64,000 nt of DNA from a virus (IMGVR_UViG_3300042360_000330), one strand, 5' to 3'. Positions 9,504-64,000 are shown, counted from the stretch's first letter. A program made the numbers and translations. Notes: a model not told the origin generated them from the letters alone.

Positions 9504-9504
9504 T

Positions 9505-13012: not shown

Positions 13013-16000
13013 ATGGCTTGTAAAAATTATAATATTAGAATTAGACAAGTAGATTTAGACAATGCTATAAACAATCCAGACCCAAATTTAGATGGAAAGG
13101 TATTTGTTAGCTTTACAGATTGTAATGGAAATCCTGAAAGTATCGCTTATTCCATAGCAGGAACATATTCTAATGCTTTTTGTGCTGATGATTCTGAAAT
13201 GATTGTTATTACTTATTCGTTTGAAGACATAGAAGTTATCACAGCTAACAGTACAGTAAACGCTGATGGGGAGTGCATTGCACCAACACCAACACCAAGT
13301 GTAACTCCAACAGTATCTATATCTCCTACACCATCTACAACACCGTTGTATCCATGTAATTGTATTAGTTTTACTAATATGTCACTATCAGAAGAAGCAT
13401 TTGTTTCATATACACGATGTGATAATGTATCATCAAATATTCTTGCTTTAGAACCTAGTGATTCTATAACATTATGTGGTAGTGATCCTGGAGTAGTAGA
13501 TGGTGATGTAGTTATTCAAATTTTAGGAAATTGTGTTGGTAGACGTTGTATTCCATTTACACCAACACCTACACCATCATTAAGTATTACTCCTAGTTTT
13601 AGTGTAACGCCAAGTAATACACCAAGTGTAACACCAAGTATTTCTATTACACCTAGTAGAACACCAAGTATTAGTATTACACCTACTATATCACCTAGTA
13701 AAACAATACCACCTACTATGACACCTACTCCAACGATTAGTGTGTCTAAAACTCCGTCTCTTACACCACTACCAAGTGTTAGTAAGACACCTAGTGTAAC
13801 GCCAAGTATTAGTATTACACCATCAAACGGAACTAGCCCTTCTCCAACACCATCTACTTCATTACCAATAGCTATACCAACTATAGCTGGTTTATGTATG
13901 AATGTTCAATTTGGAGCAGCACCATCTGTAACACCAAGTATAACACCAACTAGAACACCAAGTATAACACCAACTATTTCAGTTAGTGTAACACCAAGTA
14001 TTACTCCTTCTACTACTCCAAGTGTTACACCATCAATTACACCATCGATTACACCATCAGTTACACCAAGTAGTACTGATCCACCGCCTCCACCAAGTCT
14101 TACTCCTAGTAATACACCTAGTATATCTGTTAGTAATACACCTAGTTTAACACCAAGTAGAACACCAAGTAAAACACCAAGTATATCACGTACACCTAGT
14201 GTAACACCTAGTGTAACGCCAAGTATTACTCCAAGCAGAACACCTAGTATTTCTATTACTCCAACTCCATCTACTTCGAGACCTTGTACACCATGTGCTT
14301 TACCTGATGTTGTTATTGGAGCACAAACATGGACAGCATGTAATTTAGATGTTACTACTTATAGAAATGGTGACATAATTCCACAAGTAACTGATCTTAC
14401 TCAATGGGAAAATCTTACAACAGGGGCATGGTGTTACTATGATAATAACTCTATAAATGGTTGTACCTATAATAAATTATATAACTGGTATGCGGTGACT
14501 GATCCTCGTGGATTAGCTCCGGTTGGGTATCATGTACCAACAGAGGCTGAATTTAGAACATTAGCTAATTATTTAGGAGGTACAAATGTAGCAGGGGGTA
14601 AATTAAAATCAACAGGAACCACACTTTGGAACAGTCCTAATGCAGGTGCAACAAATGAAACAGGTTGGACTGGATTACCAGGAGGGGGGAGATCAAATGG
14701 ACAATTTAATTCAAAAGGTATATCTGGTCCTTATTGGACTTCTACACCTGATCCAAATCCAAATCCTGGGTTTACTAATTTAGCAACCTATATCGACCTA
14801 TATAGCTTCAATCAACTACTTGATTTTAAAGGCTTTAGTAAAACTAGTGGATATTATGTACGTTTAATTAAAGACGTTCCAAATCCACTTACATGTAATA
14901 CCATATTATATAAAACACAAGGAAATCAATATTATTTATATAATTTTTCAACTAATACATCTACATTATTAAATGTACCTGCTGCACCATTTGATAGTGT
15001 TGCAACTTCATTAGGTATTTCTATAGCACCACTAGCCCGTACTTCTAATAAATTATGGTCTTACACATGGAATGTTAACGGTGGAGGTTTAAATAATAAT
15101 AGTATAGTAGAATACAATACAACAAGTAACCCATTCACCGCAACTATTAACAGATATATTGCTTTACCCCAAGCACCAGAATCTACTTTTCCAGGGGGAA
15201 CAGAGTTCTATCCAGGAACTGGTTTATTTGCTATTAGTAATACAAAATTAATAGGGACTGTAAATAGAATAGGTGGTCTCCAATTACGTTCTATAGCATC
15301 GCAACAAGATGTAGTAGATAGCCCTTCAGCTAAATATGTTAATGGTGTAATGGTAGTAGAATATGATATTACATCAAATGTAGCTACTTGGACTCTTAAA
15401 GTTAAGTTACCTCCACAAGAAGATCCAGCAGGAGATTTACTATTAACTTCAGATAATAAACTTATAGTACTTACTAAATACCAAAATTATCATTTTTTAA
15501 ATCAATATAATTACAATACAGGAGTATTAGAATTTAGAAAACAAATATCACCTACTATAACAACAGATTGTGGTTTAGCTCAAGTAAATAATGAAATATA
15601 TTTAATGGGGTATAATGTGTATAAGTTTAATCCTACAACATTTGCATTAACATTAGTTCAATCACCGCAAACACAATTAGTAGCGGCTTCGCAATTAGCA
15701 AGTTGTATTAATGTAAATTTACCTACATCAAGTTGTTCTGAATGTTTAACATTACCTTTAAAACTATCAACTCCTATGAATTATAATGGAATTAATATAA
15801 TTCCTACATACACAGGACCAGTAGCTTCTGATAATTTTTTCCCATTAAGTACCTTAGGAATGCCAGTTTGTGAAGGAACTAATGTTACAACATATCCATC
15901 ATATTCTGCTTTTCTAGGAAACCTTTCTGGAGATTATACATATTCTTTAAATTTTAGCCAACCAGTAAATAATATTAAAATATCATATGGTGGAACTAAT

Positions 16001-17245
16001 AGTAATCCTAACCCAGGTGAATTATTTACTTGGAATACAAATGTAGGAGTTCCTAATATATCATTATGTAAAGGATGTTATCAAACAGTAAATGGAAATA
16101 CAGTAACCGGCTCTTCATCAGGGAATATTAATTTAGGTGAAATTCAACAAGCTGGTGGAGGAATAATAACAATATCAGCTCCATTAAATTACACAACATT
16201 AACTTTAACATCACCTGGAGGTAATCAGGGTTCAGTATTTAGTATATGCTCAGGAAGTATAATACCACAACCATCTAATGCTTTAGGATGTGTTTATATG
16301 AGTAGTTTTACAACAGGATTAACTTACTTATATAATGTTAATAATAATACATCGTCATCTGTTACTCTTCCTGTAGATCAACAACCAAATCCTAGTATTC
16401 AAGCTATTACAGATACTCATACTTCTACTAAATATTGGAGAGGTAATAGATGGGGTACTATTAAGGAATGGAATACCACTTCTACACCTAATGTGTTAGC
16501 ATTAAATAGAACAATAACAATACAAGGATTCCCGTTTCCATTTGGTAATGATCAAAAACAATGGAATAAAATGCAGGCTATAGATGATAATACATTGTTA
16601 GTTTGTGCAAACTACACTATACCTAATACCCCAGAAAATATATATTTTGGTAATTGGATAAATACTATAACATTATTTGATATAAGCAGCACTACTAATA
16701 TAGTTGGTTCTGCTCAACAAACACCATTATTTAACGTTTATGCACCTGCAGGTAATGTAGATGCACTTTTATTAACTACTAATAATAAATTAATAATCAT
16801 TGGAAGAAGAGGTAATGGAATTAATCCATTTAATTATAATAATTATTATTTATCTCAATATTCTTATCCTGATGGTGCTTTAGAATTAGAGGTAAGTTTA
16901 AATAATTATCTTCCCTCTTCAGGAGATGGAGGTACTACATACCTAGTTGCTTTATTTGAATCAGGTAATGGAAAAATTTATGCAAAAGTAGCAGCACAAA
17001 CTATTGGCGCACCAAGTATAACATATGAAGTTAATTTAAATTCTCCATATATATTTACTCAAGTTTGGAGTGGTATAGATCAACGAAATTTTTATTTTAA
17101 TTCATCAATTAACTGTAATACAGTAGCATTAAATCCAGCACCACCACCACCATCATTATCACCAACACCAACACCTAGTTTAACACCACCAGTGTCACCT
17201 AATGTAGGAGTTAATACAATTTACAAATATTTAGATATTTTATGA
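13013..17245 (+). CDS. Large mucin-like virion protein: Cys modules, TPS repeats, FISUMP (Fibrobacter major paralogous) domain and two repeated propeller-like domains
   Basis: Long TPS(V/I) tracts; IGAQTWTACNLDVTTYRNGD...GKLK...ATNETGWTGLPGG; duplicated LLLTxxNKLI...L(N/S)QYxY module. Confidence 0.75.
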   Translation: MACKNYNIRIRQVDLDNAINNPDPNLDGKVFVSFTDCNGNPESIAYSIAGTYSNAFCADDSEMIVITYSFEDIEVITANSTVNADGECIAPTPTPSVTPTVSISPTPSTTPLYPCNCISFTNMSLSEEAFVSYTRCDNVSSNILALEPSDSITLCGSDPGVVDGDVVIQILGNCVGRRCIPFTPTPTPSLSITPSFSVTPSNTPSVTPSISITPSRTPSISITPTISPSKTIPPTMTPTPTISVSKTPSLTPLPSVSKTPSVTPSISITPSNGTSPSPTPSTSLPIAIPTIAGLCMNVQFGAAPSVTPSITPTRTPSITPTISVSVTPSITPSTTPSVTPSITPSITPSVTPSSTDPPPPPSLTPSNTPSISVSNTPSLTPSRTPSKTPSISRTPSVTPSVTPSITPSRTPSISITPTPSTSRPCTPCALPDVVIGAQTWTACNLDVTTYRNGDIIPQVTDLTQWENLTTGAWCYYDNNSINGCTYNKLYNWYAVTDPRGLAPVGYHVPTEAEFRTLANYLGGTNVAGGKLKSTGTTLWNSPNAGATNETGWTGLPGGGRSNGQFNSKGISGPYWTSTPDPNPNPGFTNLATYIDLYSFNQLLDFKGFSKTSGYYVRLIKDVPNPLTCNTILYKTQGNQYYLYNFSTNTSTLLNVPAAPFDSVATSLGISIAPLARTSNKLWSYTWNVNGGGLNNNSIVEYNTTSNPFTATINRYIALPQAPESTFPGGTEFYPGTGLFAISNTKLIGTVNRIGGLQLRSIASQQDVVDSPSAKYVNGVMVVEYDITSNVATWTLKVKLPPQEDPAGDLLLTSDNKLIVLTKYQNYHFLNQYNYNTGVLEFRKQISPTITTDCGLAQVNNEIYLMGYNVYKFNPTTFALTLVQSPQTQLVAASQLASCINVNLPTSSCSECLTLPLKLSTPMNYNGINIIPTYTGPVASDNFFPLSTLGMPVCEGTNVTTYPSYSAFLGNLSGDYTYSLNFSQPVNNIKISYGGTNSNPNPGELFTWNTNVGVPNISLCKGCYQTVNGNTVTGSSSGNINLGEIQQAGGGIITISAPLNYTTLTLTSPGGNQGSVFSICSGSIIPQPSNALGCVYMSSFTTGLTYLYNVNNNTSSSVTLPVDQQPNPSIQAITDTHTSTKYWRGNRWGTIKEWNTTSTPNVLALNRTITIQGFPFPFGNDQKQWNKMQAIDDNTLLVCANYTIPNTPENIYFGNWINTITLFDISSTTNIVGSAQQTPLFNVYAPAGNVDALLLTTNNKLIIIGRRGNGINPFNYNNYYLSQYSYPDGALELEVSLNNYLPSSGDGGTTYLVALFESGNGKIYAKVAAQTIGAPSITYEVNLNSPYIFTQVWSGIDQRNFYFNSSINCNTVALNPAPPPPSLSPTPTPSLTPPVSPNVGVNTIYKYLDIL
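13560..14280 (+). repeat. Degenerate 12-bp tandem repeats encoding TPS(V/I/T)
   Basis: Recurrent acacc(a/t)agt(gt/at)a units. Confidence 0.85.
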
Positions 17246-18528: not shown

Positions 18529-19893
18529 ATGTTAAACATAAGCTTTACATTCACAGGATACTTAAATGGACGCCCATATTGGACATCAACTCAATATGGT
18601 ATGCAAATGATATGGACTGGACCTTATTGGGAAATTATAAATTGGCCATATGATGGGACACCTGTAAATTATACTGATACTGATATTCCATTAACAGGAT
18701 GGCAACTTATAGATAATACAACTATGACTGCTAATTTTACTGTTAATTTAGGTGAATGTTGTTTTAACTATTCATTTGTTAATAATGTAGGACGATCATT
18801 TTTAGATATAAGTTATGTAGATTGTAATGGAAATCCTCAAGAAATAATAGCAGGATTCGGATTTTCAGGATCATTTTGTGCTAAATCTATATCTTATGTA
18901 TCCAACCCAGGATCATTGAATTTAACTGGAAATTCATGCCCATCTAATACAAATTGTTATAACTGGGAATTAATAGGACCTGTAACAGTATATTACACAG
19001 ATTGTAACGGAGTATCAGGAAATATGGCTACTGTACCTAACGGAGAGTTTGGTCCTAGTATTTGTGCTCTTAGTATAGATATATGGGATAATGCAGGTAA
19101 TTTCTATATTCAAGGATATTGCGATGACCCATCAGTATCAACAACACCAAGTGTTACACCATCAATAACACCATCAATAACACCAAGTACAACACCAAGT
19201 AGAACACCATCAACTTCTCCACCACTTCAAATACATTCAGTTTATAGTTGTTGTAATAGTAGAAAAGAAGGAATGTTAATATCAGATGCATTTATAGGTT
19301 TGACTGTAATATCAACAACAGGTGAATGTTTCTTTGTAAATAGTTCTATTGAACCAACAGCAACTGTAACATGGGATGGTAATTTAGGATATGTGAATTG
19401 TAATGAATGTACAGCTATAAATCTATGTCCGCCACCATCACCAACACCTAGTATTAGTGTCAGTAGAACACCAAGTGTAACACCAAGTACAACACCTAGT
19501 ATTAGTATAAGTAAAACACCTAGTGTAACGCCTAGTGTAACACCTTCAATTTCGATTAGTAAAACACCTAGTGTAACACCAAGTGTAACACCAAGTATCA
19601 CTCCAAGTACAACACCACCAGGTATATCATATTCATTTTATGCTAATGATTGGACTCCTTTTGGCCCATGTAACACTCCTGCTTATAATATATTTTCAGG
19701 TAGTGACGGTAAATATTATGCTTCAGATGATGGTGGAAATACCTTTACATTACTGTATTCTATAGCTGAGAACTGGTATCAACTTGTAGGTTACGATCCA
19801 TTCTTTATGGAAGATGTTTATCAACAATATGTAGTAAATTCAACTTCTACAACGATAACAATTGGTGGAACATTATTTTCTACATGTTTTTAA
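18529..19893 (+). CDS. Mucin-like virion protein with Cys-rich modules and TPS repeats
   Basis: YxDCNG modules and two TPS(V/I) tracts. Confidence 0.7.
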   Translation: MLNISFTFTGYLNGRPYWTSTQYGMQMIWTGPYWEIINWPYDGTPVNYTDTDIPLTGWQLIDNTTMTANFTVNLGECCFNYSFVNNVGRSFLDISYVDCNGNPQEIIAGFGFSGSFCAKSISYVSNPGSLNLTGNSCPSNTNCYNWELIGPVTVYYTDCNGVSGNMATVPNGEFGPSICALSIDIWDNAGNFYIQGYCDDPSVSTTPSVTPSITPSITPSTTPSRTPSTSPPLQIHSVYSCCNSRKEGMLISDAFIGLTVISTTGECFFVNSSIEPTATVTWDGNLGYVNCNECTAINLCPPPSPTPSISVSRTPSVTPSTTPSISISKTPSVTPSVTPSISISKTPSVTPSVTPSITPSTTPPGISYSFYANDWTPFGPCNTPAYNIFSGSDGKYYASDDGGNTFTLLYSIAENWYQLVGYDPFFMEDVYQQYVVNSTSTTITIGGTLFSTCF

Positions 19894-19910: not shown

Positions 19911-20411
19911 ATGGCTTTATACGGTTCATCTAGAGATATTTCATTTTTTCATGTTATTAACAGAGAGTTAATTCATAACATCATTGAACAAAACATAGGA
20001 TATTATCAAATATCACTAGATGAAACCTCTGTAAATGTATATGGTGAAGCAGCTAATGGTACTAAAATGTACTATCCGCCTGTTTTAATTCAATGTTTAA
20101 TTGACAGAGGTGATTATGAAGGTGATTATGATGCTCAAATCGGACCTGACTTTACTAGAAATTTTTCATTTAGATTTTTAAGAAGAGATTTAGTTGACCA
20201 AAACGTAGTACCTCAAATAGGTGATGTTGTTTTATGGAATAATGATTATTATGAAGTTAATTTAGTAAACGAAAACCAAGACATAGTAGGTAAAGTACCT
20301 CAATACAATTATGGAGGGGCTTACTTAGATGATTTTGGAGCAAGTTTTTCAATAATTTGTAATGCACATTATGTATCACCAGAATCATTAGGATTAACTC
20401 AAACTAGATAA
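19911..20411 (+). CDS. Head completion / neck protein (T4 gp14-like)
   Basis: MALYGSSRD...ELIHNIIEQ; VPQIGDVVLWNNDYYEV; position in the neck module. Confidence 0.65.
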   Translation: MALYGSSRDISFFHVINRELIHNIIEQNIGYYQISLDETSVNVYGEAANGTKMYYPPVLIQCLIDRGDYEGDYDAQIGPDFTRNFSFRFLRRDLVDQNVVPQIGDVVLWNNDYYEVNLVNENQDIVGKVPQYNYGGAYLDDFGASFSIICNAHYVSPESLGLTQTR

Positions 20412-22315
20412 TGGCAAATCAATTACCAATATTACCAAATACACCAGCTCGTGCTTTAAATGAATATATAGAACCGTACATACCAGGTACAAAACCTATA
20501 TTACCTGAAGATTTAATAACTAGAGCTAGTCAAATATCTGTTGATATTGAAAACGATGTTAAACCATTTTCAATTGGATTACAAGATATTGATGATGCTG
20601 TATTCTTTTACTTTAATAATATTATAAAACCAACAATAGTTCAAAATGGTAATCAAATACCTGTACCTGTTTCTTATGCTTCTGCTGAAAGATGGGTATC
20701 TGTTCAAAAAGATGGGTATTTTAGAGATAAGAATGGAAAAGCAATGCATCCATACATTATTGTAAGAAGAACTGGATTTGAAAAAAATAGAACATTAGCA
20801 AATAAATTAGATGGTAATAATGTAAATAACTTTGCTGTTGCTAGAGCTAGGTATAATTCTCAAAATCAATACACCAATTTTGATGTTTTAAATAACGTAA
20901 CACCATCTGAGAAATTCTATTTAACTCCTGTACCAGATTATGTTAATATAACGTACGAATGCGCCATTATTACCAATTTTATTCAAGAAAACAACAAAAT
21001 CGTCGAATCAGTAGAGTTTGCGTCAGATTCGTATTGGGGTGATAAAAATCGTTTTCAATTTAGAACATATATTGATAGATTTGACTCTACAAATGAATAT
21101 GGTGTGAGTGATCAACGTATAGCCAAAACAAGTATGAATTTAACACTTTATGGTTATATTATTCCTGACACTATCAATAGAGATATGGCTACAAATGGTA
21201 AAAAACAATTCTTCTCTAAATCAATTGTTTCCATTACCGCCGAAACTTCAGTTAATGCTGATGGGAGAATAGCAGCTCCTACTGCCCCAAGAGTTAGTCA
21301 ACCTTTACCTAGTGTAATACCAAGTATATCAATTACACCAAGTATATCAATTACGCCTAGTGTAACACCAAGTATAAGTATATCACCTAGTATTACACCA
21401 AGTACATCAATTATACCTAGTATATCTGTAACACCAAGTATTACTCCAAGTATATCAATCACACCTAGTGTAACACCAAGTATAAGTATATCACCTAGTA
21501 TTACACCAAGTACATCAATTGTACCTAGTATATCTGTAACACCTAGTGTTACACCAAGTAATACACCAAGTATATCAATTACACCAAGTGTAACGCCTAG
21601 TATAACACCATCACTAAGTTCAGCACCTACTACTGGGGGTAGTATAGATTTTGGGAATGAATTAGGTAGGTATGCTATTACAAATTTAACAAATAGTAAT
21701 TATTCATTAGGATATAATGATTTTACAATTGAATGGTTCCAAAAACTTACTACTTTCGATGATACCCTTAATAATATAACTCCATTTTCTATATACAATT
21801 CAGACTTAGATTTTTTATATTTTACTCTTCAAGATGACGGTGCTCCTAATATAAGGTGTTACATCAACCCAGTGGTAAATGATACATTCCAACAATATGT
21901 TTTTGATACTAACGTACCTCTTACAACATTATTAGACTGGACTCATATTGCACTTGTTAGAGTAGGAACCTCATTAAAAATATACATTAATGGTACTTTT
22001 GCTAACCCAAGTGATTATACTTTAGGAAATGTAAATTTACAACCATTATTATCAAAATTAATCATTGGAAATACAGGAAGAACTCCGTCAAGTTGGAAAT
22101 TCCCAGGAAAAATAACTAACTTTAATTTTGTTAACGGAACTGCCTTATATAACAGTGATTTTACACCACCAACAGCACCATTATCACCATCAGCTAACAC
22201 TAAATTATTGTTATTAGCTACAGATAATGCTGGATTATTAACAGACTCAAGTGGATTGAATATAGTTGTAAATAATATTAATGGGGTAACATGGAGTTCT
22301 GATACTCCTTTTTAA
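20411..22315 (+). CDS. Tail terminator (gp15-like) extended by a Pro/Ser/Thr linker and a C-terminal LamG/ConA-like domain
   Basis: IPVPVSYASAERW and TPVPDYVNITYEC in the N-part; S/T/P tract; DFTIEWF...WTHIALVR...LKIYINGT...FPGKITNF (LamG). Confidence 0.7.
   Translation: MANQLPILPNTPARALNEYIEPYIPGTKPILPEDLITRASQISVDIENDVKPFSIGLQDIDDAVFFYFNNIIKPTIVQNGNQIPVPVSYASAERWVSVQKDGYFRDKNGKAMHPYIIVRRTGFEKNRTLANKLDGNNVNNFAVARARYNSQNQYTNFDVLNNVTPSEKFYLTPVPDYVNITYECAIITNFIQENNKIVESVEFASDSYWGDKNRFQFRTYIDRFDSTNEYGVSDQRIAKTSMNLTLYGYIIPDTINRDMATNGKKQFFSKSIVSITAETSVNADGRIAAPTAPRVSQPLPSVIPSISITPSISITPSVTPSISISPSITPSTSIIPSISVTPSITPSISITPSVTPSISISPSITPSTSIVPSISVTPSVTPSNTPSISITPSVTPSITPSLSSAPTTGGSIDFGNELGRYAITNLTNSNYSLGYNDFTIEWFQKLTTFDDTLNNITPFSIYNSDLDFLYFTLQDDGAPNIRCYINPVVNDTFQQYVFDTNVPLTTLLDWTHIALVRVGTSLKIYINGTFANPSDYTLGNVNLQPLLSKLIIGNTGRTPSSWKFPGKITNFNFVNGTALYNSDFTPPTAPLSPSANTKLLLLATDNAGLLTDSSGLNIVVNNINGVTWSSDTPF
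21339..21554 (+). repeat. 108-bp (36-aa) tandem duplication inside the P/S/T linker
   Basis: cctagtgtaacacc recurs at 21356 and 21464; SITPSVTPSISISPSITPSTSI(I/V)PSISVTPS occurs twice. Confidence 0.8.
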
Positions 22316-37233: not shown

Positions 37234-38067
37234 ATGGATTTATCTTTAATCAAACAGACGTTGGCCACCTTTAACAACAAAGGCCAGTCTAAGGAAAAAA
37301 CTGATTACACAAAAATTTTCTGGAAACCAAAAGTAGGGAAACATCAAGTTCGTATTGTTCCTTCTAAGTTTAACAAGTCTACACCATTCCGTGAAATTTA
37401 TTTTCACTACGGGTATACTAAAGGACCTATTTTAGCATTAACTAATTGGGGTGAAGCTGATCCTATTGCAGAAGCAGCACAAAAACTTCGCAAATCAGAC
37501 AACCCAGATCATTGGCAAATGGCTAAAAAAATTACTCCTAAAATGAGAGTATTTGCACCAGTTATCGTTCGTGGTGAAGAAGACATGGGTGTTCGTTTAT
37601 GGGAATTTGGTAAAGAAATTTACACTCAATTAATGAACATTGCTATGAATGAAGATTACGGTGATTACACTGATATTCAGGATGGTCGTGACTTTATTGT
37701 AGAAGGCACTGATGATACAGTAGCTGGTCGTAAAGTAGTAAAATGTGTTCTTACACCAAGAGTAAAAACTACACCAATTACAGATGATGCTACGGCTTTA
37801 AAAACTTATTTAGAAGAACAGCCTGATATCTTTGCTATCAATAAGAAACATACTTATGAAAGCTTAAAAGAAATCTTTGAAAAATGGGCTAATCCTGAAG
37901 AAGAAGACGACAATGCCCCTATTGCTACTGCTTCTGATGAAGAAGAAACAGAAACACCGAGTAGAGGAGATTTACCTTGGGAAAAAGAAGAAAAACAATC
38001 TTCTTACACATTACAAACAAAACAACCAAAAGCGGACAAATTCGAAGATTTATTTAACGAAGCATAA
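37234..38067 (+). CDS. Single-stranded DNA-binding protein (gp32-like)
   Basis: FWKPKVGKHQVRIVP; VRLWEFGKEIYTQL; DGRDF; acidic tail ending FEDLFNEA. Confidence 0.85.
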   Translation: MDLSLIKQTLATFNNKGQSKEKTDYTKIFWKPKVGKHQVRIVPSKFNKSTPFREIYFHYGYTKGPILALTNWGEADPIAEAAQKLRKSDNPDHWQMAKKITPKMRVFAPVIVRGEEDMGVRLWEFGKEIYTQLMNIAMNEDYGDYTDIQDGRDFIVEGTDDTVAGRKVVKCVLTPRVKTTPITDDATALKTYLEEQPDIFAINKKHTYESLKEIFEKWANPEEEDDNAPIATASDEEETETPSRGDLPWEKEEKQSSYTLQTKQPKADKFEDLFNEA

Positions 38068-38069
38068 TT

Positions 38070-40198: not shown

Positions 40199-40206
40199 TA
40201 TATTTA
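40175..40206 (+). promoter_or_regulatory. Bacteroidota sigma70-like promoter
   Basis: TTTG-N20-TATATTTA upstream of the helicase gene. Confidence 0.55.
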
Positions 40207-40242
40207 CAAAAATAGGTTATTAACAATTAAATAGGTTATATA

Positions 40243-41604
40243 TTGACAACTTTATCAAAACTGTCCCAATACGGACCCGCATTTCAAATCAAAGTAATAG
40301 GCGCTCTATTAACAGATAGAAATTTCTTAATTACTATATCCGATGCTTTAACTGAAGATTATTTTGAAAATACTTCACATCAATGGATTATTAAGGAAGT
40401 TTTAAGTTATTTTCATAAATACCACACTGTGCCTTCAATGGAAGCATTAAAGGTAGAGATACAAAAAATTGAAAATGATGTATTACAAATAGCAGTTAAA
40501 GAACAACTAGTACAAGCATATCGAGATTCAGAACAGACAGATGCTCAATACATTAAAGATGAATTTTTAGGATTTTGCCGAAATCAGCAAATGAAAAAAG
40601 CTATTATTGCTTCTACAAATTTATTAAGTATTAATGACTTTGATTCAATTAGACAATTAATTCTTAATGCACTTAAAGTAGGTGAAATAAGATCTATTGG
40701 TCATGAGTATGAAAAAGATGTTGAAACTAGGTATCGTGATGATAATAGATCACCAATTCCATTTCCTTGGGATGTTATGAATAATATTACACAAGGTGGT
40801 TACGGTAAAGGTGAATTAGTTATTATATTTGGTAATCCTGGTGGTGGTAAATCATGGGCTATTATTGATATGGCAACACATGCTGCTAAATTAGGATTTA
40901 ATGTATTATATTATACTCTTGAATTAAGTGAAACTTATGTAGCAAGACGTATGGATGCTAATTTATTAAGTATTCCTGTAGATAAAATTACAATGCATCG
41001 TGAAGAAATTGAGCAAATGGCTCAAGAGATACCTGGTAAAATTAAAATTAAAGAATTTCCTGCAGGTAAAACTACATTAGATAATATTGAACAACATATT
41101 GAACAATTAAGAATGCAATATGAATTTGTACCTGATGTAATTTATATTGATTATATTGACTTACTTAAAAACTCATCACGAGATAGATTAGAAGGTACAG
41201 AAGATATATACACCAGTATTCGAGGATTAGCAACAGAATTAGGTATTCCAATTGTAACTCCATCACAAGCTAATAGAACAGGTGCTAAAAGTGATATTAT
41301 TGAAGGAGATAACATAGCAGGTTCATATTCTAAGTTAATGATTGGGGATATCGTTTTATCATTAGCTAGAAATAGAAAAGATAAATTAGAAAATACAGGA
41401 CGTTGGCATGTTATGAAGAATAGATTGGGAGGAGATGGTATGACATTTGCTTCAACCATCGATACTTCCATGGGTAAAATTGAAATATTCGAAGACTTCC
41501 TAGAAATCGATACATCTAGCACAGATAAAAAGCCAGGCGATTATAACGCAGTAGATAGAGAAGAAAAAGACTTTTTAAGAAATTTTATTCTTAATAGTGA
41601 TTAA
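40243..41604 (+). CDS. dnaB: Replicative helicase DnaB/gp41-like (TTG start)
   Basis: GNPGGGKSW; YYTLELSE; IYIDYIDLL; TPSQANR; MKNRLG. Confidence 0.9.
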   Translation: MTTLSKLSQYGPAFQIKVIGALLTDRNFLITISDALTEDYFENTSHQWIIKEVLSYFHKYHTVPSMEALKVEIQKIENDVLQIAVKEQLVQAYRDSEQTDAQYIKDEFLGFCRNQQMKKAIIASTNLLSINDFDSIRQLILNALKVGEIRSIGHEYEKDVETRYRDDNRSPIPFPWDVMNNITQGGYGKGELVIIFGNPGGGKSWAIIDMATHAAKLGFNVLYYTLELSETYVARRMDANLLSIPVDKITMHREEIEQMAQEIPGKIKIKEFPAGKTTLDNIEQHIEQLRMQYEFVPDVIYIDYIDLLKNSSRDRLEGTEDIYTSIRGLATELGIPIVTPSQANRTGAKSDIIEGDNIAGSYSKLMIGDIVLSLARNRKDKLENTGRWHVMKNRLGGDGMTFASTIDTSMGKIEIFEDFLEIDTSSTDKKPGDYNAVDREEKDFLRNFILNSD

Positions 41605-57222: not shown

Positions 57223-57462
57223 ATGAAACCAATCTTTGTAATCCAAATGCCATTAGGCACTCCTGCTGAGATTTTAGAAAAAGCATACGATCAAGTACAT
57301 AGTAATGGTATAAGTGAAGATTATCACGTACTTCTTACTATAGGTAATGATTCAACAGCAACTTTTAAATGCTTTAATTCTTCATATACTAAAGAAGAGT
57401 ATGCTAAATTAGAACAATTAATAAACGAAATAAATAAAGATTATGTCTCTAAAGAGAATTGA
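57223..57462 (+). CDS. Hypothetical protein
   Basis: ORF following a promoter. Confidence 0.5.
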   Translation: MKPIFVIQMPLGTPAEILEKAYDQVHSNGISEDYHVLLTIGNDSTATFKCFNSSYTKEEYAKLEQLINEINKDYVSKEN

Positions 57463-58222
57463 AGATTATAACAAAACACTTCCAATTGTAGAGCTTTATA
57501 CAGCAGTACAGTCAGAAGGAAGTAGAGCAGGTTATCCAACAGTAGTAATCAGAACAACAGGTTGTACTCACAGATGTTGGTTCGGAGATGGTGGATGGTG
57601 CGATTCTTGGTATACAAGTATTCATCCTGAAAAAGGACATATTAGTTTCCAAGACATTATTAACATGTACGATAAAAATCCTCACATCACAGAGATGATG
57701 CTTACAGGAGGATCACCCACAATGCACCCTGCATTAGTAAATGAATTAACACATTTTGCACATGAAAGAAATATTTTCATTACAATTGAGACCGAAGGAA
57801 GTCATTTTCTTGAAACAGATTACCCGATTAATCTACTATCAATCTCCCCTAAGTTCAGCAATTCTGTCCCTAAAGTTGGCATTGCAACACCTCAAGGAGA
57901 CATTACAGATGAAAGAATGATTAAACAACATAATAAGTTAAGACTTAATTATGATGCAATTTCTAAATCAATTGCTTACCATTCTGATTATCACTTAAAA
58001 CCAGTATGGGATGGTGAAGATCAAGACGCATTAGAAGAAATAATGGGTTGCATTAAAATATTAGATATACCGCAAGACAAAGTATGGTTCATGCCAGCTG
58101 GTGATTCAAGAGAGGCTTTATTTAAATCATACCCTAAAATGTTTGATTGGGTGAGAGATAACGGTTATAGATTGACCTGGAGACCCCATATTATTGCATT
58201 TGAAGATCAAAGAGAAGTATAA
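57443..58222 (+). CDS. queE: 7-carboxy-7-deazaguanine synthase (radical SAM)
   Basis: VQSEG; RTTGCTHRC...WCDS; LTGGSP; ITIETEG; SISPK. Confidence 0.9.
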   Translation: MSLKRIEDYNKTLPIVELYTAVQSEGSRAGYPTVVIRTTGCTHRCWFGDGGWCDSWYTSIHPEKGHISFQDIINMYDKNPHITEMMLTGGSPTMHPALVNELTHFAHERNIFITIETEGSHFLETDYPINLLSISPKFSNSVPKVGIATPQGDITDERMIKQHNKLRLNYDAISKSIAYHSDYHLKPVWDGEDQDALEEIMGCIKILDIPQDKVWFMPAGDSREALFKSYPKMFDWVRDNGYRLTWRPHIIAFEDQREV

Positions 58223-58425
58223 TGACATTAAGAGAAGCCCATTTAAACGAAATAGATGTACTAAACACCCTATGGTGGATGTTGAGTAATCAAAAAATTA
58301 ATCTAGGTGATGTAAAATTTCATGCCCAAAGTTTGGATCTTGAAATAGAATTTATTACATTTGAAGGATATAGATTTACAAATAAAGATAAAACAATTAT
58401 TTATTCTTATGGCAGACAACAATAG
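58222..58425 (+). CDS. Hypothetical protein
   Basis: Coupled small ORF. Confidence 0.45.
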   Translation: MTLREAHLNEIDVLNTLWWMLSNQKINLGDVKFHAQSLDLEIEFITFEGYRFTNKDKTIIYSYGRQQ

Positions 58426-59107
58426 AAAGAAAATCCACAACGATTTAGAAGTGGTACAAGTAGGTTTTGCAAATGGTGTTGCACCTGGTTTTCCTTTAAC
58501 TGATCTTCAAAAACAGCATATGATTGAAGAGGCAACTGAAGCATACGGCCAGTTTTTAACAGCATTAGGTTGTGATTGGAAAAATGATCCAAACAGTTCT
58601 GATACACCAAGACGTGTAGCTAAAGCATACGTTAATGATTTATGGAAAGGTAGATACACAGAAATGTCTGAAATTACTTCATTCCCATCAGACGGTTATG
58701 ATGGTATTATAATTGAAAGAAACATTCCATTAACTTCAATGTGTTCACATCACCATCAAACAATTGGAGGAGTAGTTCATATTGGTTATATAGCTGGAGA
58801 ACATGGTCAAGTAATTGGTTTATCTAAACTAAACAGAATTGTTGAATTATTTGGTCGTAGAGGAGCTATTCAAGAACAATTAACATCAGCTATTCATAAC
58901 GCTGTAAATAAGATTACTGAAGGTAATTTAGGTGTTATTGTTACTATAGTTGGAACTCATAACTGTGTATCTTGTAGAGGTGTTAAACACCAAGGGGCAG
59001 CAATGGTTACTACTAAAGCATCAGGTGCTTTTAGAGATGATACTAATAATGCTCGTAAAGAGTTCTTTGATTCATTAAAGATTAATAACGGTGGACATAA
59101 TATCTAA
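58409..59107 (+). CDS. folE: GTP cyclohydrolase I
   Basis: DTPRRVAK; SMCSHHH; GLSKLNR; IQEQLT; HNCVSCRGV; ATG 58409 preferred. Confidence 0.95.
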   Translation: MADNNRKKIHNDLEVVQVGFANGVAPGFPLTDLQKQHMIEEATEAYGQFLTALGCDWKNDPNSSDTPRRVAKAYVNDLWKGRYTEMSEITSFPSDGYDGIIIERNIPLTSMCSHHHQTIGGVVHIGYIAGEHGQVIGLSKLNRIVELFGRRGAIQEQLTSAIHNAVNKITEGNLGVIVTIVGTHNCVSCRGVKHQGAAMVTTKASGAFRDDTNNARKEFFDSLKINNGGHNI

Positions 59108-59110
59108 AAA

Positions 59111-59512
59111 ATGGCTTTAAAAATAGGAAATAAAATTTACTTAAGTTGGGATGATATATCCCAACTAGTAGACACATTATGTGAAAAAATTATTACTGAA
59201 CAACCTAACATTGATTCAGTATTTGGTTTAAAACGTGGTGGACTTATACCTGCGGTAATGGTATCACATAAATTAGGTTTACCTTGGTCTGACGTAATGT
59301 TACCTAATACTTTAGTAATAGATGACATTTGTGACACAGGAATAACATTAAAAAATACAATTGGTGTTTACTCAGCAGTACTTCATCATAAACCACATAC
59401 TTCCTGTTATACACCTAATATTTATGCACAAATACATGAAGGTAATGAATGGATTATTTATCCATGGGAGCGTAAAGACTCAGAACAAATACAAGATTAT
59501 TTAAAAAAATAA
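59111..59512 (+). CDS. Type I phosphoribosyltransferase (xanthine-guanine PRT-like)
   Basis: GLKRGGLIPAVMVSHKL; LVIDDICDTGITL; WIIYPWE. Confidence 0.85.
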   Translation: MALKIGNKIYLSWDDISQLVDTLCEKIITEQPNIDSVFGLKRGGLIPAVMVSHKLGLPWSDVMLPNTLVIDDICDTGITLKNTIGVYSAVLHHKPHTSCYTPNIYAQIHEGNEWIIYPWERKDSEQIQDYLKK

Positions 59513-59516
59513 AGTT

Positions 59517-60023
59517 ATGATAACAGAACCAAAAGTACCTTTTATAGATGAGGTAGAAGAATTTAACGCCGTAATGGGTAAACCAAACAGTTATGAACCA
59601 AACATACCCCAAAGAAAAGAATGGGAATTTGTATACAATTTCATCCTTGAAGAACTTGAAGAATATAGAGACGCTTGCGAAAGAGGAGACATCGTTGAGG
59701 TTTTGGACGCTCTTTGCGATATTACTTATGTTGCCACTGGGAACGGTACTATGTTACATGGCCTTAAGGATAAGATATGGCCAGCCTATCAAGAGGTTCA
59801 AGCGTCAAATTTATCTAAAGCTTGTAAAACAGAAGAAGAAGCTCAAGCAACGGTCGCTAAAAGAAGCATCGAACAAGATGAAGCATGTCATTACGAAAAA
59901 GTTGGAGAGTATTTTATTGTTTATAGAACAAGAGACAAAAAAGTAATGAAAAATGTAAATTACTTCCGTCCTAATTTAAGACAATTCTTTACTGAAGAAG
60001 ACATTTACCAAAACAAAATTTAA
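59517..60023 (+). CDS. MazG-like / dimeric all-alpha NTP pyrophosphatase
   Basis: ILEELEEY...VEVLDALCDITYV...VQASNLSK. Confidence 0.8.
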   Translation: MITEPKVPFIDEVEEFNAVMGKPNSYEPNIPQRKEWEFVYNFILEELEEYRDACERGDIVEVLDALCDITYVATGNGTMLHGLKDKIWPAYQEVQASNLSKACKTEEEAQATVAKRSIEQDEACHYEKVGEYFIVYRTRDKKVMKNVNYFRPNLRQFFTEEDIYQNKI

Positions 60024-60053
60024 CCAAACTATTAACATTTAAAACAAATTATT

Positions 60054-60371
60054 ATGAGTGGATTTGATATTATCATCCTAATTATTGCTATTGTAATTAT
60101 AGCAGCGGTTGTAGGAGCCTTTGTTACAAACGAACAAAAATCCTTAAGTGAAATGACTAAAAAGTATTATGTAAATGAAGAACTAGGAGAAAAACCAAAA
60201 GAAAAATTCCAACCTAGAAAAGTTACTGTACAAACTCCATCACGTCAAGTAAATGAAGTTGTTAAAGAAGCAGTAGGTATTACAGAACCTGAAGTTAAAA
60301 AAGAAACAAAATCAGAATTTCCTATTGACAAACCAAAGAAAAAAAGAAAATATTATCCAAAGAAAAAATAA
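60054..60371 (+). CDS. Membrane-anchored basic protein
   Basis: N-terminal TM helix; Lys-rich C-terminus. Confidence 0.55.
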   Translation: MSGFDIIILIIAIVIIAAVVGAFVTNEQKSLSEMTKKYYVNEELGEKPKEKFQPRKVTVQTPSRQVNEVVKEAVGITEPEVKKETKSEFPIDKPKKKRKYYPKKK

Positions 60372-60385
60372 TATAAATCCTAGTT

Positions 60386-61663
60386 ATGTCTAAAAAAAAG
60401 GTTTCCGACGAAACTATATTCGTACAAATTGCTTCTTATAGAGATCCGGAATTGCTTCCTACTTTAGAAAGTTGTATATCTAATGCAAAATACCCAGAAA
60501 ATTTACATTTCTGTATTGCTTGGCAACATTCTGAAGAAGATGAATGGGATACTTTAGACCAATATAAAAATGATCCTCGTTTTAATATATTGGATATAAA
60601 CTACAAAGATGCAAAAGGCGTATGTTGGGCTAGAAATAAACTTCAACGACAGTATAACGGAGAAAAATACACATTACAATTGGATTCTCATCACCGATTC
60701 GATAAGAATTGGGATGAGACTCTGATTAATATGTTAAAAGGTCTTCAAGTTAAAGGTCATAAAAAACCCTTATTAACTGCATATTTACCTGGATATTTCC
60801 CTAAAAATGATCCTGAAGGTAGAAATGTAGAAGTATGGCACACAAATTATGACAGATTTATGCCTGAAGGTCCTATATTTATTACTCCTGACTATGTACC
60901 AGATTGGAGAGAAATTAAAGAACCAATTCCTGCTAGGTTATACTCCGGACATTTTGCATTTACTTTAGGTAGCTTTGTACATGATGTACCACATGATCCT
61001 GATTTATATTTTCATGGAGAAGAAACATCAATAGCTGCTCGTGCTTATACTCATGGCTACGATTTGTTCCATCCTCATATTCCTGTTATATGGCATGAAT
61101 ACACTAGAGAAGGAAAACAACGCCATTGGGATGATCATCAATTTTCACCATTAGATAAACGTTCATTTAAAAAATACCGAGCATTATTTGGTATAGATGG
61201 TGAAAGTAGAGAAGACTTTGATTTTGTAGGTTACGATTTAGGTACTGAACGTACTTTAGCTGAATTTGAACGCTATATAGGTGTTGATTTTAAAGGTAAA
61301 CGAGTTCACATTCATACATCTCAACATAAATTACTACCAGTACCTTATACAACTGAAGAAGATTGGGAAGCTAATATGACTCGACGTTTTAAATATTGTA
61401 TTGATGTTTATAAAGGTTCACTTCTTGACGAAGACTATGACTGTTGGGTAATAGCATTTAAAGATAAAGATGGAGTAGAAATTTATAGACAAGATGCAGA
61501 CGCCGAAGAAATAAACCAAATTAAACTTGGAAACTCAGGACAATTTTACAATATTTGGAGAGAATTTGACTGTATTGAATATCCAAAAACATGGTTACTG
61601 TGGCCTCACAGTCCATCTAAAGAGTGGAATCACGAAGTTATACAAAACGAAATACCTTATTAA
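60386..61663 (+). CDS. GT60-like polypeptide GlcNAc-transferase (copy 1)
   Basis: IFVQIASYRDPEL; GVCWAR; LQLDSHHRF (DSH motif); SGHF; YFHGEE...R.YTHGYD; WH.Y. Confidence 0.8.
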   Translation: MSKKKVSDETIFVQIASYRDPELLPTLESCISNAKYPENLHFCIAWQHSEEDEWDTLDQYKNDPRFNILDINYKDAKGVCWARNKLQRQYNGEKYTLQLDSHHRFDKNWDETLINMLKGLQVKGHKKPLLTAYLPGYFPKNDPEGRNVEVWHTNYDRFMPEGPIFITPDYVPDWREIKEPIPARLYSGHFAFTLGSFVHDVPHDPDLYFHGEETSIAARAYTHGYDLFHPHIPVIWHEYTREGKQRHWDDHQFSPLDKRSFKKYRALFGIDGESREDFDFVGYDLGTERTLAEFERYIGVDFKGKRVHIHTSQHKLLPVPYTTEEDWEANMTRRFKYCIDVYKGSLLDEDYDCWVIAFKDKDGVEIYRQDADAEEINQIKLGNSGQFYNIWREFDCIEYPKTWLLWPHSPSKEWNHEVIQNEIPY

Positions 61664-62949
61664 TGAAAAAAGCAGAAAAAAGAAAAATATTTCTCCACTT
61701 ACCAGCGTATAGAGAACCAGAACTTATTCCAACAATACAATCTGCATTAAATAATGCAAAACATCCTGAAAGATTAGTATTTGGTATATGTCGTCAATTT
61801 AATCCTGAAGATGGGTTTGATAATATTGATGAATATAGAAAAGATAAGCGTTTTAAAATTATTGATATACCATACGAAGAAGCTAAAGGATTACCATATG
61901 CTCGTTATCAAATTAACACCTTGTTAACTAATGAAGAATACATATGTCAATTAGATTCTCACCATAGGTTTGCACATCATTGGGATGTAACTTTAATTGA
62001 GATGCATGATCAATTAAAAGCTAAAGGACATAAAAAACCTATACTAGCTGCTTATTTACCCTATTATAATCCGTTTAATGACCCTGCTGAGCGTACTATG
62101 GAACCATGGCAACAAACGTTTGCCTCGTTCTACCCACACGGAACAATATTCATTAGACCAGGATTATTACACGGGTGGCAAGACATGGAAGAACCAGCAC
62201 CCTCAAGATTCTTATCAGGACATTTTTGCTTTGCTGATAGTCATTGGGCTAAAACTGTTCTCCATGATGCTGATATATATTTTAGTGGTGAAGAATTAAA
62301 TTTAACTGTACGTTCATATACTCACGGTTATGATATGTTTCATCCACATAAATTAGTTGTATGGCATGCTACTATGAGAGAAGAACGTAGTGGTAAATTA
62401 GTGTGGGATGATCAGTCTAAACGTGGAGAAGATTGGTGGACTCAACAAAATGTAGCAAGAGCTAAAATTAGACAATTACTTCAAACAGAAGATAACGGAT
62501 TTGATTTAACTGGTTATGATCTAGGTACTGAACGTACATTAAGAGAATATGAAAAATACGCTGGTATTCATTTTAAAAAACGTGCAGTACAAAAATATAC
62601 ATTAGAAAATCACTATCCTCCGAACCCGGTTATTGAAGATGACCAAGAATGGGAAAATTCATTTATGTTTTCATTCTATCATCTATTACAATTTAATAAA
62701 TCTACTTTCAAACATAATGATTATGACTTTTGGGTTGTAGCCTTTGATGATGAAAATGGAAACCAAATTTGGAGAGAAGATTATAATGAATATCAAATAA
62801 AACAAATCATAGAAACTCAAGGTGATTGGTATAATGAAGAAAAATTCTTCTTAACAGATAAAGTACCATCAAAATGGGTTATATGGGCTCATAGTAAATC
62901 TCAAGAATGGGCAGAACGAATAGAAGGACCAATTAATTACGGAAATTAA
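61663..62949 (+). CDS. GT60-like polypeptide GlcNAc-transferase (copy 2)
   Basis: LPAYREPEL; GLPYAR; QLDSHHRF; SGHF; YFSGEE...R.YTHGYD. The ATG at 61663 is coupled to the stop of copy 1. Confidence 0.78.
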   Translation: MKKAEKRKIFLHLPAYREPELIPTIQSALNNAKHPERLVFGICRQFNPEDGFDNIDEYRKDKRFKIIDIPYEEAKGLPYARYQINTLLTNEEYICQLDSHHRFAHHWDVTLIEMHDQLKAKGHKKPILAAYLPYYNPFNDPAERTMEPWQQTFASFYPHGTIFIRPGLLHGWQDMEEPAPSRFLSGHFCFADSHWAKTVLHDADIYFSGEELNLTVRSYTHGYDMFHPHKLVVWHATMREERSGKLVWDDQSKRGEDWWTQQNVARAKIRQLLQTEDNGFDLTGYDLGTERTLREYEKYAGIHFKKRAVQKYTLENHYPPNPVIEDDQEWENSFMFSFYHLLQFNKSTFKHNDYDFWVVAFDDENGNQIWREDYNEYQIKQIIETQGDWYNEEKFFLTDKVPSKWVIWAHSKSQEWAERIEGPINYGN

Positions 62950-62950
62950 T

Positions 62951-63880
62951 ATGTTACAAGTTTATTTTTTAGAAACCCAATATGCTTATATGGGTTGGAG
63001 TGATGTTTTTTTAGAATTAGTAAATACTTTAAGAGAAGAATTTAATGCTGAAATTATACATAAAAAAGGAGGATATCTTTACATAGAAAAGTTTGATTAT
63101 AACTTACCTGATTGTGAATTAGTAATATATGATGAAAAAAATGATATATTAAAAGCTATTACATGGTCTGAAAGTCCAACAGATTTATTTAAAATATTTG
63201 AAAAACGTGGTAATAAAAATGATATATTATTACTTACTCAACAAGTTCATTGGTTACCTCCAAACTATGATTTTTCAGTCCATACTTTTACAGTAAAACC
63301 AACAACGTTTTATACATTTACACCTCAAACTAACCATAACCATTTCTATAATTTAAGAAGATTTAAAGATTTTAACAGTTTAAAAGATCAATTATTTTGG
63401 TTATCTACAACTAGAAGAGAAGACCCATATAAACTATACGAATTAGGTCTATGCCCAGCACCTTTAGGAATGGGTAATCAACTTATGCCAATTGAAGATT
63501 ATTTAAAACAAGCTATAGAATATAAAGTAGGACTTTCTATATCTAGTAATGCTGAACTATGCTACAGAGATATAGAATACATGGCTGTAGGATTACCTAT
63601 GTTACGATTAGAATATTTTACTCCATTGGACCCACCTTTAATTCCTGACTACCACTATATATCAGTACCTAGAAATAATTTTATATGCAATGCTAGACAA
63701 GATAGAATAGGAGGGGATGAATATATAGAAGCATATAAAAAACGATTCTTTGAAGTAAAAGATGATAAAGAATTTTTAAATTTTATTACTAAAAATGCTA
63801 AAGAATATCATGATGCTTATTGTAGTCCTCAAAATAGAATTGTACATTTAATGGGTAGATTAGAATTAAAAAATGAGTAG
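62951..63880 (+). CDS. Putative GT-B glycosyltransferase (CgeB/GT90-like C-terminal domain)
   Basis: YKVGLSISSNAELCYRDIEYMAVG...LIPDYHYI...FITKNAKEY. Confidence 0.55.
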   Translation: MLQVYFLETQYAYMGWSDVFLELVNTLREEFNAEIIHKKGGYLYIEKFDYNLPDCELVIYDEKNDILKAITWSESPTDLFKIFEKRGNKNDILLLTQQVHWLPPNYDFSVHTFTVKPTTFYTFTPQTNHNHFYNLRRFKDFNSLKDQLFWLSTTRREDPYKLYELGLCPAPLGMGNQLMPIEDYLKQAIEYKVGLSISSNAELCYRDIEYMAVGLPMLRLEYFTPLDPPLIPDYHYISVPRNNFICNARQDRIGGDEYIEAYKKRFFEVKDDKEFLNFITKNAKEYHDAYCSPQNRIVHLMGRLELKNE

Positions 63881-64000
63881 TATAATTTCTGAACCTTTGG
63901 TTATAGGATATACATGTTGTGGTCCTACTTTTAGAAAAAGTGTATATGATAAATTAAAAAATTATTATTTTGATGATGATAATTTATTTTACTGTATTGT
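63873..64000 (+). CDS. Partial ORF running off the window end
   Basis: MSSIISEPLVIGYTCCGPTFRKSVYDKLKNYYFDDDNLFYCI..., overlapping the previous stop. Confidence 0.55.
   Translation, partial: MSSIISEPLVIGYTCCGPTFRKSVYDKLKNYYFDDDNLFYCI

Follow-up and report, generated by a model that had tools for sequence, protein, structure and literature searches.

Glycosyltransferase (GT) family 60 includes Trypanosoma cruzi TcOGNT-2 and Dictyostelium DdGnt2, polypeptide α-N-acetylglucosamine (α-GlcNAc) transferases that start mucin-type O-glycans on Thr (PMC3769586). A further member, Dictyostelium Gnt1, carries the Swiss-Prot name of Skp1-hydroxyproline α-GlcNAc-transferase. Here we describe two adjacent GT60 genes, GT1 and GT2, in a 64,000-nucleotide stretch of viral DNA (IMGVR_UViG_3300042360_000330; hereafter the window, meaning the whole stretch analyzed), together with three proteins from the same window that carry long TPS(V/I) tracts and are predicted to be their acceptors. 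The source is an uncultured myophage, a relative of Flavobacterium phage vB_FspM_immuto (immuto). To our knowledge, mucin-type initiation by GT60 is known only from protists, and phage-particle glycosylation is documented only for a few mycobacteriophages. A literature search turned up no report of GT60 in connection with phage particles.

Polypeptide N-acetylgalactosamine (GalNAc) transferases of family GT27 operate as several isoforms acting on the same dense Ser/Thr tracts. Among viruses, chloroviruses and mimiviruses possess their own soluble GTs, sugar methyltransferase domains, and nucleotide-sugar enzymes, achieving cytoplasmic decoration of structural proteins without host secretory glycosylation. 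In mycobacteriophages, phage-encoded GTs reportedly modify the phage's own structural proteins (Freeman et al. 2023, Cell Host Microbe, as cited in PMC12619734). Phages also glycosylate DNA, using TarP/JGT-like GT-A enzymes whose genes cluster with 5mYOX, ThyS, or C5-MT genes, and T4 β-GT-like GT-B enzymes of 5mYOX/ThyS clusters (bioRxiv 10.1101/2023.12.21.572611). For the window, comparison of gene content and gene order across phages and bacteria makes it probable that the GT60 enzymes O-glycosylate TPS/TP tracts of the phage's own tail-appendage proteins.

Two GT60 paralogues with a GT-A fold and a C-terminal β-sandwich

The two enzymes are encoded as follows.

60386..61663, + strand: GT1, GT60 paralogue 1 (425 aa); PF11397, phrog_24687; soluble GT-A glycosyltransferase
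61663..62949, + strand: GT2, GT60 paralogue 2 (428 aa from ATG 61663); PF11397, phrog_24687

GT1 and GT2 are clear members of PF11397 ("GlcNAc", CAZy GT60), scoring 232.5 bits (E 1.3e-68) and 190.6 bits (E 7.3e-56), respectively, against a curated cut-off of 21 bits; profile search thereby agrees with the GT60 assignment of the first-pass annotation, which was made from the sequence alone. Both match phrog_24687 end to end (E 9e-146 for GT1) and are 43% identical to each other. The ATG of GT2 at 61663 overlaps the TAA stop of GT1 by one base (TAATG), consistent with translational coupling; this ATG is most likely the true start, although a GTG farther 5', at 61624, is open as well. The pair contains every motif quoted in the first-pass annotation, namely YR(D/E)PEL, QLDSHHRF, SGHF, YF(H/S)GEE...YTHGYD, and DYD.WV.AF.D..G, most of them invariant among 22 phage homologues. 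In all 22, D100-S101-H102 (the DSH motif, with D100/H102) and W236-H237 are invariant. Neither protein has a signal peptide or a transmembrane (TM) segment.

The GT1/GT2 architecture combines a GT-A fold with a DxH metal-binding motif. The top Swiss-Prot fold match of the AlphaFold model of GT1 (predicted local distance difference test, pLDDT, 76) is Gnt1, aligned over residues 7-329 at 24% identity (E 3.7e-15), with the runner-up reaching only 7e-8, making this GT60 enzyme the nearest Swiss-Prot structural relative. The PDB fold matches are to generic GT-A enzymes, among them RmlT, TarS, and the polypeptide GalNAc-transferases ppGalNAc-T2/T3/T10 (E 1e-7 to 1e-5; ~1e-6 for the ppGalNAc-Ts), and a PDB sequence search with the family profile detected no GT60 structure. 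Resemblance to the ppGalNAc-Ts is confined to the fold level, with no GT27 catalytic-domain membership and, besides PF11397, only a marginal Glycos_transf_2 match (E 2e-6). Complex prediction for a GT1-GT2 heterodimer returned a score of 0.01, which gives no verdict.

An extra C-terminal region of ~120-130 aa (residues ~296-425) is shared by the two paralogues, PF11397 coverage stopping at residue 302. This domain had been recognized in the first-pass annotation, with its length underestimated at ~85 aa. Modelled alone (pLDDT 88), it folds as a fibronectin type III (FN3)/immunoglobulin (Ig)-like β-sandwich, and VIA-align returns generic FN3/Ig matches with Z scores of 6-7.5. Foldseek against the PDB yields nothing below 1e-3, the best hint being a Wzt carbohydrate-binding domain (E 0.017), and no β-trefoil lectin is among the matches listed. 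The model thus suggests a generic FN3/Ig-like β-sandwich rather than a ricin-type lectin. Gnt1 appears to lack the domain: its fold alignment with GT1 stops at GT1 residue 329, and PF11397 coverage at 302.

Predicted acceptors beside the tail sheath gene

Three genes in the late structural module of the window encode TPS(V/I)-tract proteins.

13013..17245, + strand: predicted acceptor 1 (1410 aa); TPS(V/I) tracts at ~13280-14308, then Fib_succ_major (PF09603, E 1.9e-35)
18529..19893, + strand: predicted acceptor 2 (454 aa); TPS(V/I) tracts at 19111-19251 and 19408-19641; no other domain found
20411..22315, + strand: predicted acceptor 3 (634 aa); conserved N-terminal core, TPS(V/I) tract at 21302-21646, LamG/ConA-like lectin domain

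All three had been reported in the first-pass annotation. Together, the window holds 23 matches to the DNA pattern (T-P-[S/T]-x)x3 where 0 are expected, and 0/100 shuffles contain any. Acceptor 3 matches PF13385 (E 7.7e-9), and its N terminus shows a weak T4 gp15 match (8e-4) that falls below the cut-off; the tail sheath gene begins just downstream, at 22978. Homologues of acceptor 3 in the relatives G001 and G002 (L048:3200, L052:8488) are 291 aa long and have neither tract nor lectin domain; in the window and in L066/L067, the counterpart gains a TPS tract and a LamG domain and reaches 592-634 aa. The tracts probably serve as linkers. Near the sheath gene of the GT60-negative relatives G006 and G007, no acceptor orthologues were found, the region being too divergent. 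In phage XacN1, the tracts reside in four large proteins (ORF369-372) adjoining the sheath-stabilizer and sheath genes, the same position as in the window; the GT60 gene of this phage is ORF334. The glycosylated virion "coat" of the first-pass annotation does not fit this arrangement, in which the tracts belong to predicted tail-appendage linker proteins beside sheath genes and not to the capsid.

Other features of the region are recorded here. A protease-like protein (17242-18519; phrog_20754, E 6e-18) is encoded between two TPS-tract genes, and a weakly methyltransferase-like open reading frame (ORF; 9436-10101) lies within the tail-fibre region. The sheath gene (22978-24762) is 1785 nt long in the window and ~2136 nt in many relatives (L052, L056, L058, L066, and others), the longer version containing an extra insertion of ~120 aa past approximately residue 130.

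Co-occurrence and gene linkage of GT60 with tracts

Matches to (TP[ST]x)x3 in PF11397-positive records number 7 in G002 (a complete genome of 174 kb), 18 in Xoo-sp13, 19 in XacN1, and 15 in RAS14, in addition to the 23 in the window; G001, whose GT1 is 93% identical to that of the window, has 5 under the stricter x4 pattern. Eight PF11397-negative records totalling 2.8 Mb contain 0 matches each: the sheath relatives G006 and G007 (both complete) and immuto, and the jumbo relatives RsoM2USA, XbC2, Atu_ph07, Vibrio 2.275.O, and Phosso. A reversed-pattern control gave 0 to 1 matches. The contrast between 6/6 positives and 0/8 negatives corresponds to a Fisher p of ~3e-4, a value that overstates the evidence because only two independent lineages are involved.

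The reverse comparison used IMG/VR contigs of ≥60 kb picked solely by a (TP[ST][VIM])x4 tract (n=27). PF11397 is present in 14 of the 27, including 5 of the 6 contigs that are ≥90% complete; by comparison, tblastn with GT1 finds matches in only 4 of 50,697 deposited phage genomes. The association, which the first-pass annotation had named beforehand as the test on which its idea could fall, therefore held in both directions.

GT60 genes alternate with proteins consisting mostly of TPS(V/I) tract in six IMG/VR loci (L012-L016, L025), and TP tracts lie ≤10 kb from GT60 in L010, L018, and L020-L024. Homologues that span the full length, C-terminal domain included, are encoded by at least 192 bacterial species representatives. 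In the tree, the phage genes are nested within these bacterial sequences, making the earlier label "eukaryote-like" misleading. For the best 80 bacterial loci encoding a full-length homologue (36-57% identity), the density of [TS]P-repeat tracts is 0.113 per flank-kb over the kb nearest the gene and ~0.006 at 5-10 kb, a ~20-fold difference, with a tract ≤3 kb from the GT60 homologue in 21/80. Such distance decay across bacterial phyla is poorly explained by shared ancestry or ecology alone. Proteins encoded repeatedly beside these homologues are one that joins a PqqD domain to a TP-rich tail, RHS proteins containing TP tracts, and a partner of the GT32/FkbM type.

In 13 bacterial loci (L153, L156, L158-L166, and others) from Gemmatimonadota, Acidobacteriota, Verrucomicrobiota, and Pseudomonadota, a 210-270-aa protein is encoded directly upstream of the GT60 homologue, composed of a PqqD-like domain (of the type recognizing ribosomally synthesized and post-translationally modified peptides), a hydrophobic stretch, and a T/S/P-rich tail. 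It may serve as a dedicated substrate, or else as an adaptor that binds peptides.

Paralogue number and tract Ser content

The tree of phage and bacterial homologues resolves a clade of first-position copies (support 97) and a clade of second-position copies (support 100 SH-aLRT, with a long stem). Internal branching runs parallel in the two clades, which dates the duplication to before the split of these phage lineages and makes the pair ancient. Addition of the tract-selected contigs expands the GT2-type clade by the second gene of G039 and by the C-terminal half of a G035 protein. The latter (L347, IMG/VR 3300045911_000062, bases 37300-41300) is a natural fusion of both types, joining a GT1-like N-terminal half to a GT2-type C-terminal half in a single ORF of 896-897 aa that thus holds two GT60 catalytic domains. 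Tracts on this contig are near-perfect (TPSI)n.

Single-copy phages have the GT1-like type only, in all cases. Phages with the GT2-type clade show a tract Ser fraction, S/(S+T), of 0.28-0.54 (13 loci), against 0.00-0.24 for single-copy phages (22 loci), with no overlap between the two sets. Among the phages examined, the GT2-type clade is known only from those with Ser-rich tracts. These distributions provide a lead that the second paralogue may enable the use of Ser-rich tracts.

The wider module and its genomic neighbourhood

The genes flanking the pair are listed below.

57443-60023: 7-deazaguanine precursor set; QueE-like radical SAM protein, GTP cyclohydrolase I, short phosphoribosyltransferase-like protein, MazG/PRA-PH-like hydrolase
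60054..60371, + strand: small conserved protein; one N-terminal TM helix, Lys-rich tail
62951..63880, + strand: ORF3 (309 aa), candidate elongating glycosyltransferase; language-model lead (Atlas)
63873..64000, + strand: start of ORF4, continuing past the window end; translation matches L007:13485-14294

Downstream of the small protein, GT1, GT2, ORF3, and ORF4 form a row of four closely packed genes on the + strand. ORF4 is the "further ORF" of the first-pass annotation, beginning at 63873 and running past the window end. ORF3 had been called "GT-B-like", in keeping with its Atlas language-model features (0.96 to Glyco_trans_1_2/GT90/RXYLT1_C clusters) and without backing from profiles, which gave no Pfam match (seven family members included) and no significant PDB match. 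By hhalign, ORF3 scores 98.7% to family c31 and 0.2% to c19. Its site is a swap position, occupied by the c65/c31 type in the window and by the unrelated c19 type in relatives with GT1 92-93% identical; among such relatives, some have the 309-aa ORF3 type together with a 269-aa ORF4, and others a 305-aa protein unrelated to it. The 305-aa protein (L003:12554-13471) occurs in Xoo-sp13 too. Cassette swapping at this site may create alternative glycan structures within one phage population.

Because the window ends inside the module, the remainder was read from relatives with GT1 92-93% identical (L003/G001, L004, and L007). In the closest of them, L004/L007, the 269-aa ORF4 homologue precedes the carbamoyltransferase. 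ORF3/ORF4 are followed by genes for an O-carbamoyltransferase (PF02543 + PF16861), an uncharacterized 337-aa protein, and a fusion of a TylF-type O-methyltransferase with an HtrL_YibB domain; PolB comes next. Xoo-sp13 and XacN1 preserve the order of GT60, the carbamoyltransferase, and two of the same uncharacterized families. Past a replication block, the relative with GT1 93% identical has a second glycan block encoding two enzymes of family GT4, three or four of family GT2 (the family, as distinct from the paralogue GT2), Gmd, two more epimerase/reductases, a DegT fragment, a methyltransferase, and a PglD-like acetyltransferase; further GTs, which the first-pass annotation suggested looking for downstream, are present there.

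None of 22 module proteins (window, L007, L137) contains a TM-like segment. No Wzx/Wzy-like or initiating phosphoglycosyl-transferase-like Pfam family occurs among the annotated module proteins, three proteins (224-291 aa) being unannotated. A TM-free module is easier to reconcile with modification of proteins in the cytoplasm than with synthesis of an undecaprenyl-linked surface polysaccharide.

The small protein at 60054-60371, with a TM-like segment at residues 1-19, is kept directly 5' of the GT pair in 8 loci (cluster c15) and has no family match in Pfam and PHROG searches; its membership of the glycosylation module is uncertain. A scan of 59400-64000 found promoter-like sites to be rarer than in shuffles and 0 terminators, a result compatible with a single transcription unit but not informative. 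Nucleotide identity between immuto and the window (89%) is confined to the QueE/FolE/phosphoribosyltransferase/MazG-like genes, which are syntenic between the two phages in a different order. DpdA follows the hydrolase gene in immuto; in the window and its close relatives, the glycosylation module occupies that point, and no DpdA is seen in the stretches read of these genomes.

Proposed pathway and alternative explanations

In the proposed pathway, GT1 and GT2 would act as soluble cytoplasmic Mn-dependent (DxH) GT-A glycosyltransferases, initiating O-glycosylation on Thr and Ser of the TPS(V/I) linkers ahead of virion assembly. By analogy with characterized GT60 enzymes, UDP-GlcNAc is the most likely donor. 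The glycan would be extended and decorated by the soluble module, comprising ORF3/ORF4, the O-carbamoyltransferase, and the TylF-type sugar O-methyltransferase-HtrL-like fusion, along with the family GT4 and GT2 enzymes, Gmd, epimerase/reductases, and the PglD-like acetyltransferase encoded farther on. The expected product is a set of mucin-like extended linkers, predicted to be protease-resistant, that present the lectin-like distal domains (Fib_succ_major, LamG). As a working model of the division of labour, the GT1-type enzyme would serve Thr-Pro contexts, as in single-copy phages, and the GT2-type enzyme the Ser-rich TPS tracts. Possible, if rather doubtful in its full extent, is a broader scenario in which tailed phages and many bacteria share a GT60-initiated cytoplasmic mucin-type system, an ancient duplication in the lineage of the window split Thr-Pro from Ser-rich recognition, a 20-30 kb phage-encoded pathway builds a methylated, carbamoylated chain containing deoxy- or amino-sugars, and linker sequence can be read from the paralogue set.

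Several observations weigh against glycosylation of the tracts by these enzymes. The GT genes of the window lie 38 kb away from the tract genes, in a setting of nucleotide metabolism and replication, flanked by 7-deazaguanine genes and, in relatives, by PolB. The complete-genome comparison spans two independent phage lineages only, and the tract-bearing, near-complete contigs G022 (100% complete) and G030 (88%) have no PF11397. The virion location of the tract proteins is deduced from gene position and weak family matches, and the Ser link may reflect few evolutionary events because the GT2-type clade is monophyletic. Fold alone leaves the acceptor class unfixed, since the teichoic-acid glycosyltransferases TarS and RmlT are similar too. 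The (S/T)P tracts of G022 (IMG/VR 3300031853_000001) and G030 (3300020165_000007) span 258-320 aa; these phages may use another initiating enzyme or have bare tracts.

Transfer to another acceptor, whether a polysaccharide, a host envelope glycan, or a secreted phage protein such as the exported cohesin/dockerin set at 49896-55770, appears improbable. The presence of the wall-teichoic-acid enzymes RmlT and TarS among the top PDB fold matches favours it, as do the resemblance of the downstream block to a polysaccharide cluster (family GT2 and GT4 enzymes, Gmd, epimerases, and acetyltransferase, in the relative with GT1 93% identical) and the naming of HtrL_YibB for a lipopolysaccharide core-region gene. 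However, neither block encodes a TM segment, no flippase- or polymerase-like (Wzx/Wzy) or initiating phosphoglycosyl-transferase-like protein is seen among the annotated proteins, and the two-way co-occurrence, the interleaved gene order, and the ~20-fold bacterial enrichment would be left unexplained.

Co-occurrence could also arise with no enzyme-substrate link, through joint descent or shared ecology among certain large phages of water and soil and the hosts they infect, the tracts being plain flexible linkers. TP linkers are indeed widespread in secreted bacterial proteins, and the two-lineage contrast and the contigs G022 and G030 speak for this reading. Yet the linkage is local: across many bacterial phyla it decays with distance within 1 kb, and in six phage loci GT60 genes take turns with tract genes. 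The GT60-negative sheath relatives G006, G007, and immuto have zero tracts, and tract Ser content follows the presence of the second paralogue. On this evidence, the absence of any link is as improbable as the use of another acceptor.

DNA hypermodification, in which the GT60 pair and the carbamoyltransferase would decorate a modified base (a hydroxymethyl-pyrimidine or 7-deazaguanine derivative) for restriction evasion, is very unlikely. Its appeal is positional: the module directly follows the QueE/FolE/phosphoribosyltransferase/MazG-like genes and precedes PolB in relatives, and in Xoo-sp13 and XacN1 it lies near DNA polymerase, RNase H, and a NUDIX gene. A carbamoyltransferase acting on 5-hydroxymethylcytosine has, moreover, been described from metaviromes. 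Against these points, a ThyA-family (PF00303) gene is absent from G002, a complete GT60-positive genome, but present in the GT60-negative G006, G007, and immuto, and no Tet/JBP (PF12851) match occurs in five GT60-positive records in a search run without a positive control. Immuto carries the deazaguanine set without these GTs, bacterial chromosomal homologues adjoin TP-repeat proteins, and in L012-L016 and L025 the GT60 genes are embedded in the structural module. Phage GT-A enzymes known to glycosylate DNA are TarP/JGT-like with R..DDD..EDY/F (bioRxiv 10.1101/2023.12.21.572611), and the enzymes here have DSH.

Least likely is Skp1-type chemistry, with GlcNAc added to hydroxyproline of the TPS tracts after prolyl hydroxylation: the top fold match, Gnt1, performs this reaction on Skp1 and is soluble like the phage enzymes, and every repeat contains Pro, but Ser/Thr content rather than Pro content changes with paralogue number, and a prolyl hydroxylase, which the first-pass annotation suggested looking for, did not appear, leaving the route unsupported because no PF13640 (P4H-type 2-oxoglutarate oxygenase) occurs in the GT60-positive relatives G001, G002, Xoo-sp13, G020, and G021 with search controls matched, although a host hydroxylase is possible.

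Glycosylation of the phage's own TPS tracts, as the first-pass annotation had proposed, is thus favoured by co-occurrence, interleaving, and bacterial linkage, once the notions of a coat and of eukaryote-like enzymes are set aside. If correct, it would make a widespread class of phage tail appendages glycoproteins, with bearing on protease resistance, stiffness, polysaccharide-matrix adhesion, host range, and immune recognition of phages, and would suggest that bacteria across many phyla O-glycosylate TP-repeat proteins in the cytoplasm, a process so far unrecognized. The proposal is directly testable because four cultured phages (XacN1, Xoo-sp13, RAS14, and CM1) carry the system, and the Ser/Thr split between paralogues offers a simple in vitro prediction.

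Comparison with known systems

The phage enzymes share with the characterized GT60 enzymes (Gnt1, DdGnt2, and TcOGNT-2) PF11397 membership and a GT-A fold with DxH, and they are soluble, as is Gnt1. Their predicted acceptors are Thr/Pro-rich repeats, as is the T. cruzi test acceptor KPPTTTTTTTTKPP (PMC3769586). Unlike these enzymes, they are phage-encoded, nest among bacterial homologues, and carry an extra C-terminal β-sandwich of ~125 aa; they also form an ancient paralogue pair, and their predicted acceptors contain as much Ser as Thr. The GT27 polypeptide GalNAc-transferases of animals and Toxoplasma likewise have a related GT-A fold with DxH and an accessory domain placed C-terminal to the catalytic one. 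The phage enzymes differ from them in having no significant GT27 sequence match, a C-terminal domain that matches FN3/Ig-type β-sandwiches with no β-trefoil lectin among the matches listed, and a predicted cytoplasmic rather than Golgi-resident location.

With the mycobacteriophages, as cited in PMC12619734, the system shares phage GTs acting on phage structural proteins, here predicted from genes. The mycobacteriophage glycans are reported at capsid and tail-tube C termini, whereas the sites predicted here are long internal TPS linkers of tail appendages, with a GT60 initiator and a far larger accessory gene set. A virus-encoded, soluble, cytoplasmic glycosylation gene set is held in common with chloroviruses and mimiviruses; those are eukaryotic giant viruses with unrelated initiators and other acceptor sites, in contrast to mucin-type tracts in a tailed phage. 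Phage DNA glycosyl-hypermodification systems, which include T4 α/β-GT, likewise have phage-encoded GT-A enzymes located among nucleotide-metabolism genes; those GT-A enzymes belong to another lineage, with R..DDD..EDY/F in place of DSH, and the ThyA-family gene is missing from G002. What is distinctive here is the combination of an ancient paralogue pair whose presence correlates with tract Ser content, tetrapeptide TPS(V/I) tracts, separation of enzyme and substrate genes, and a large pathway for a decorated glycan.

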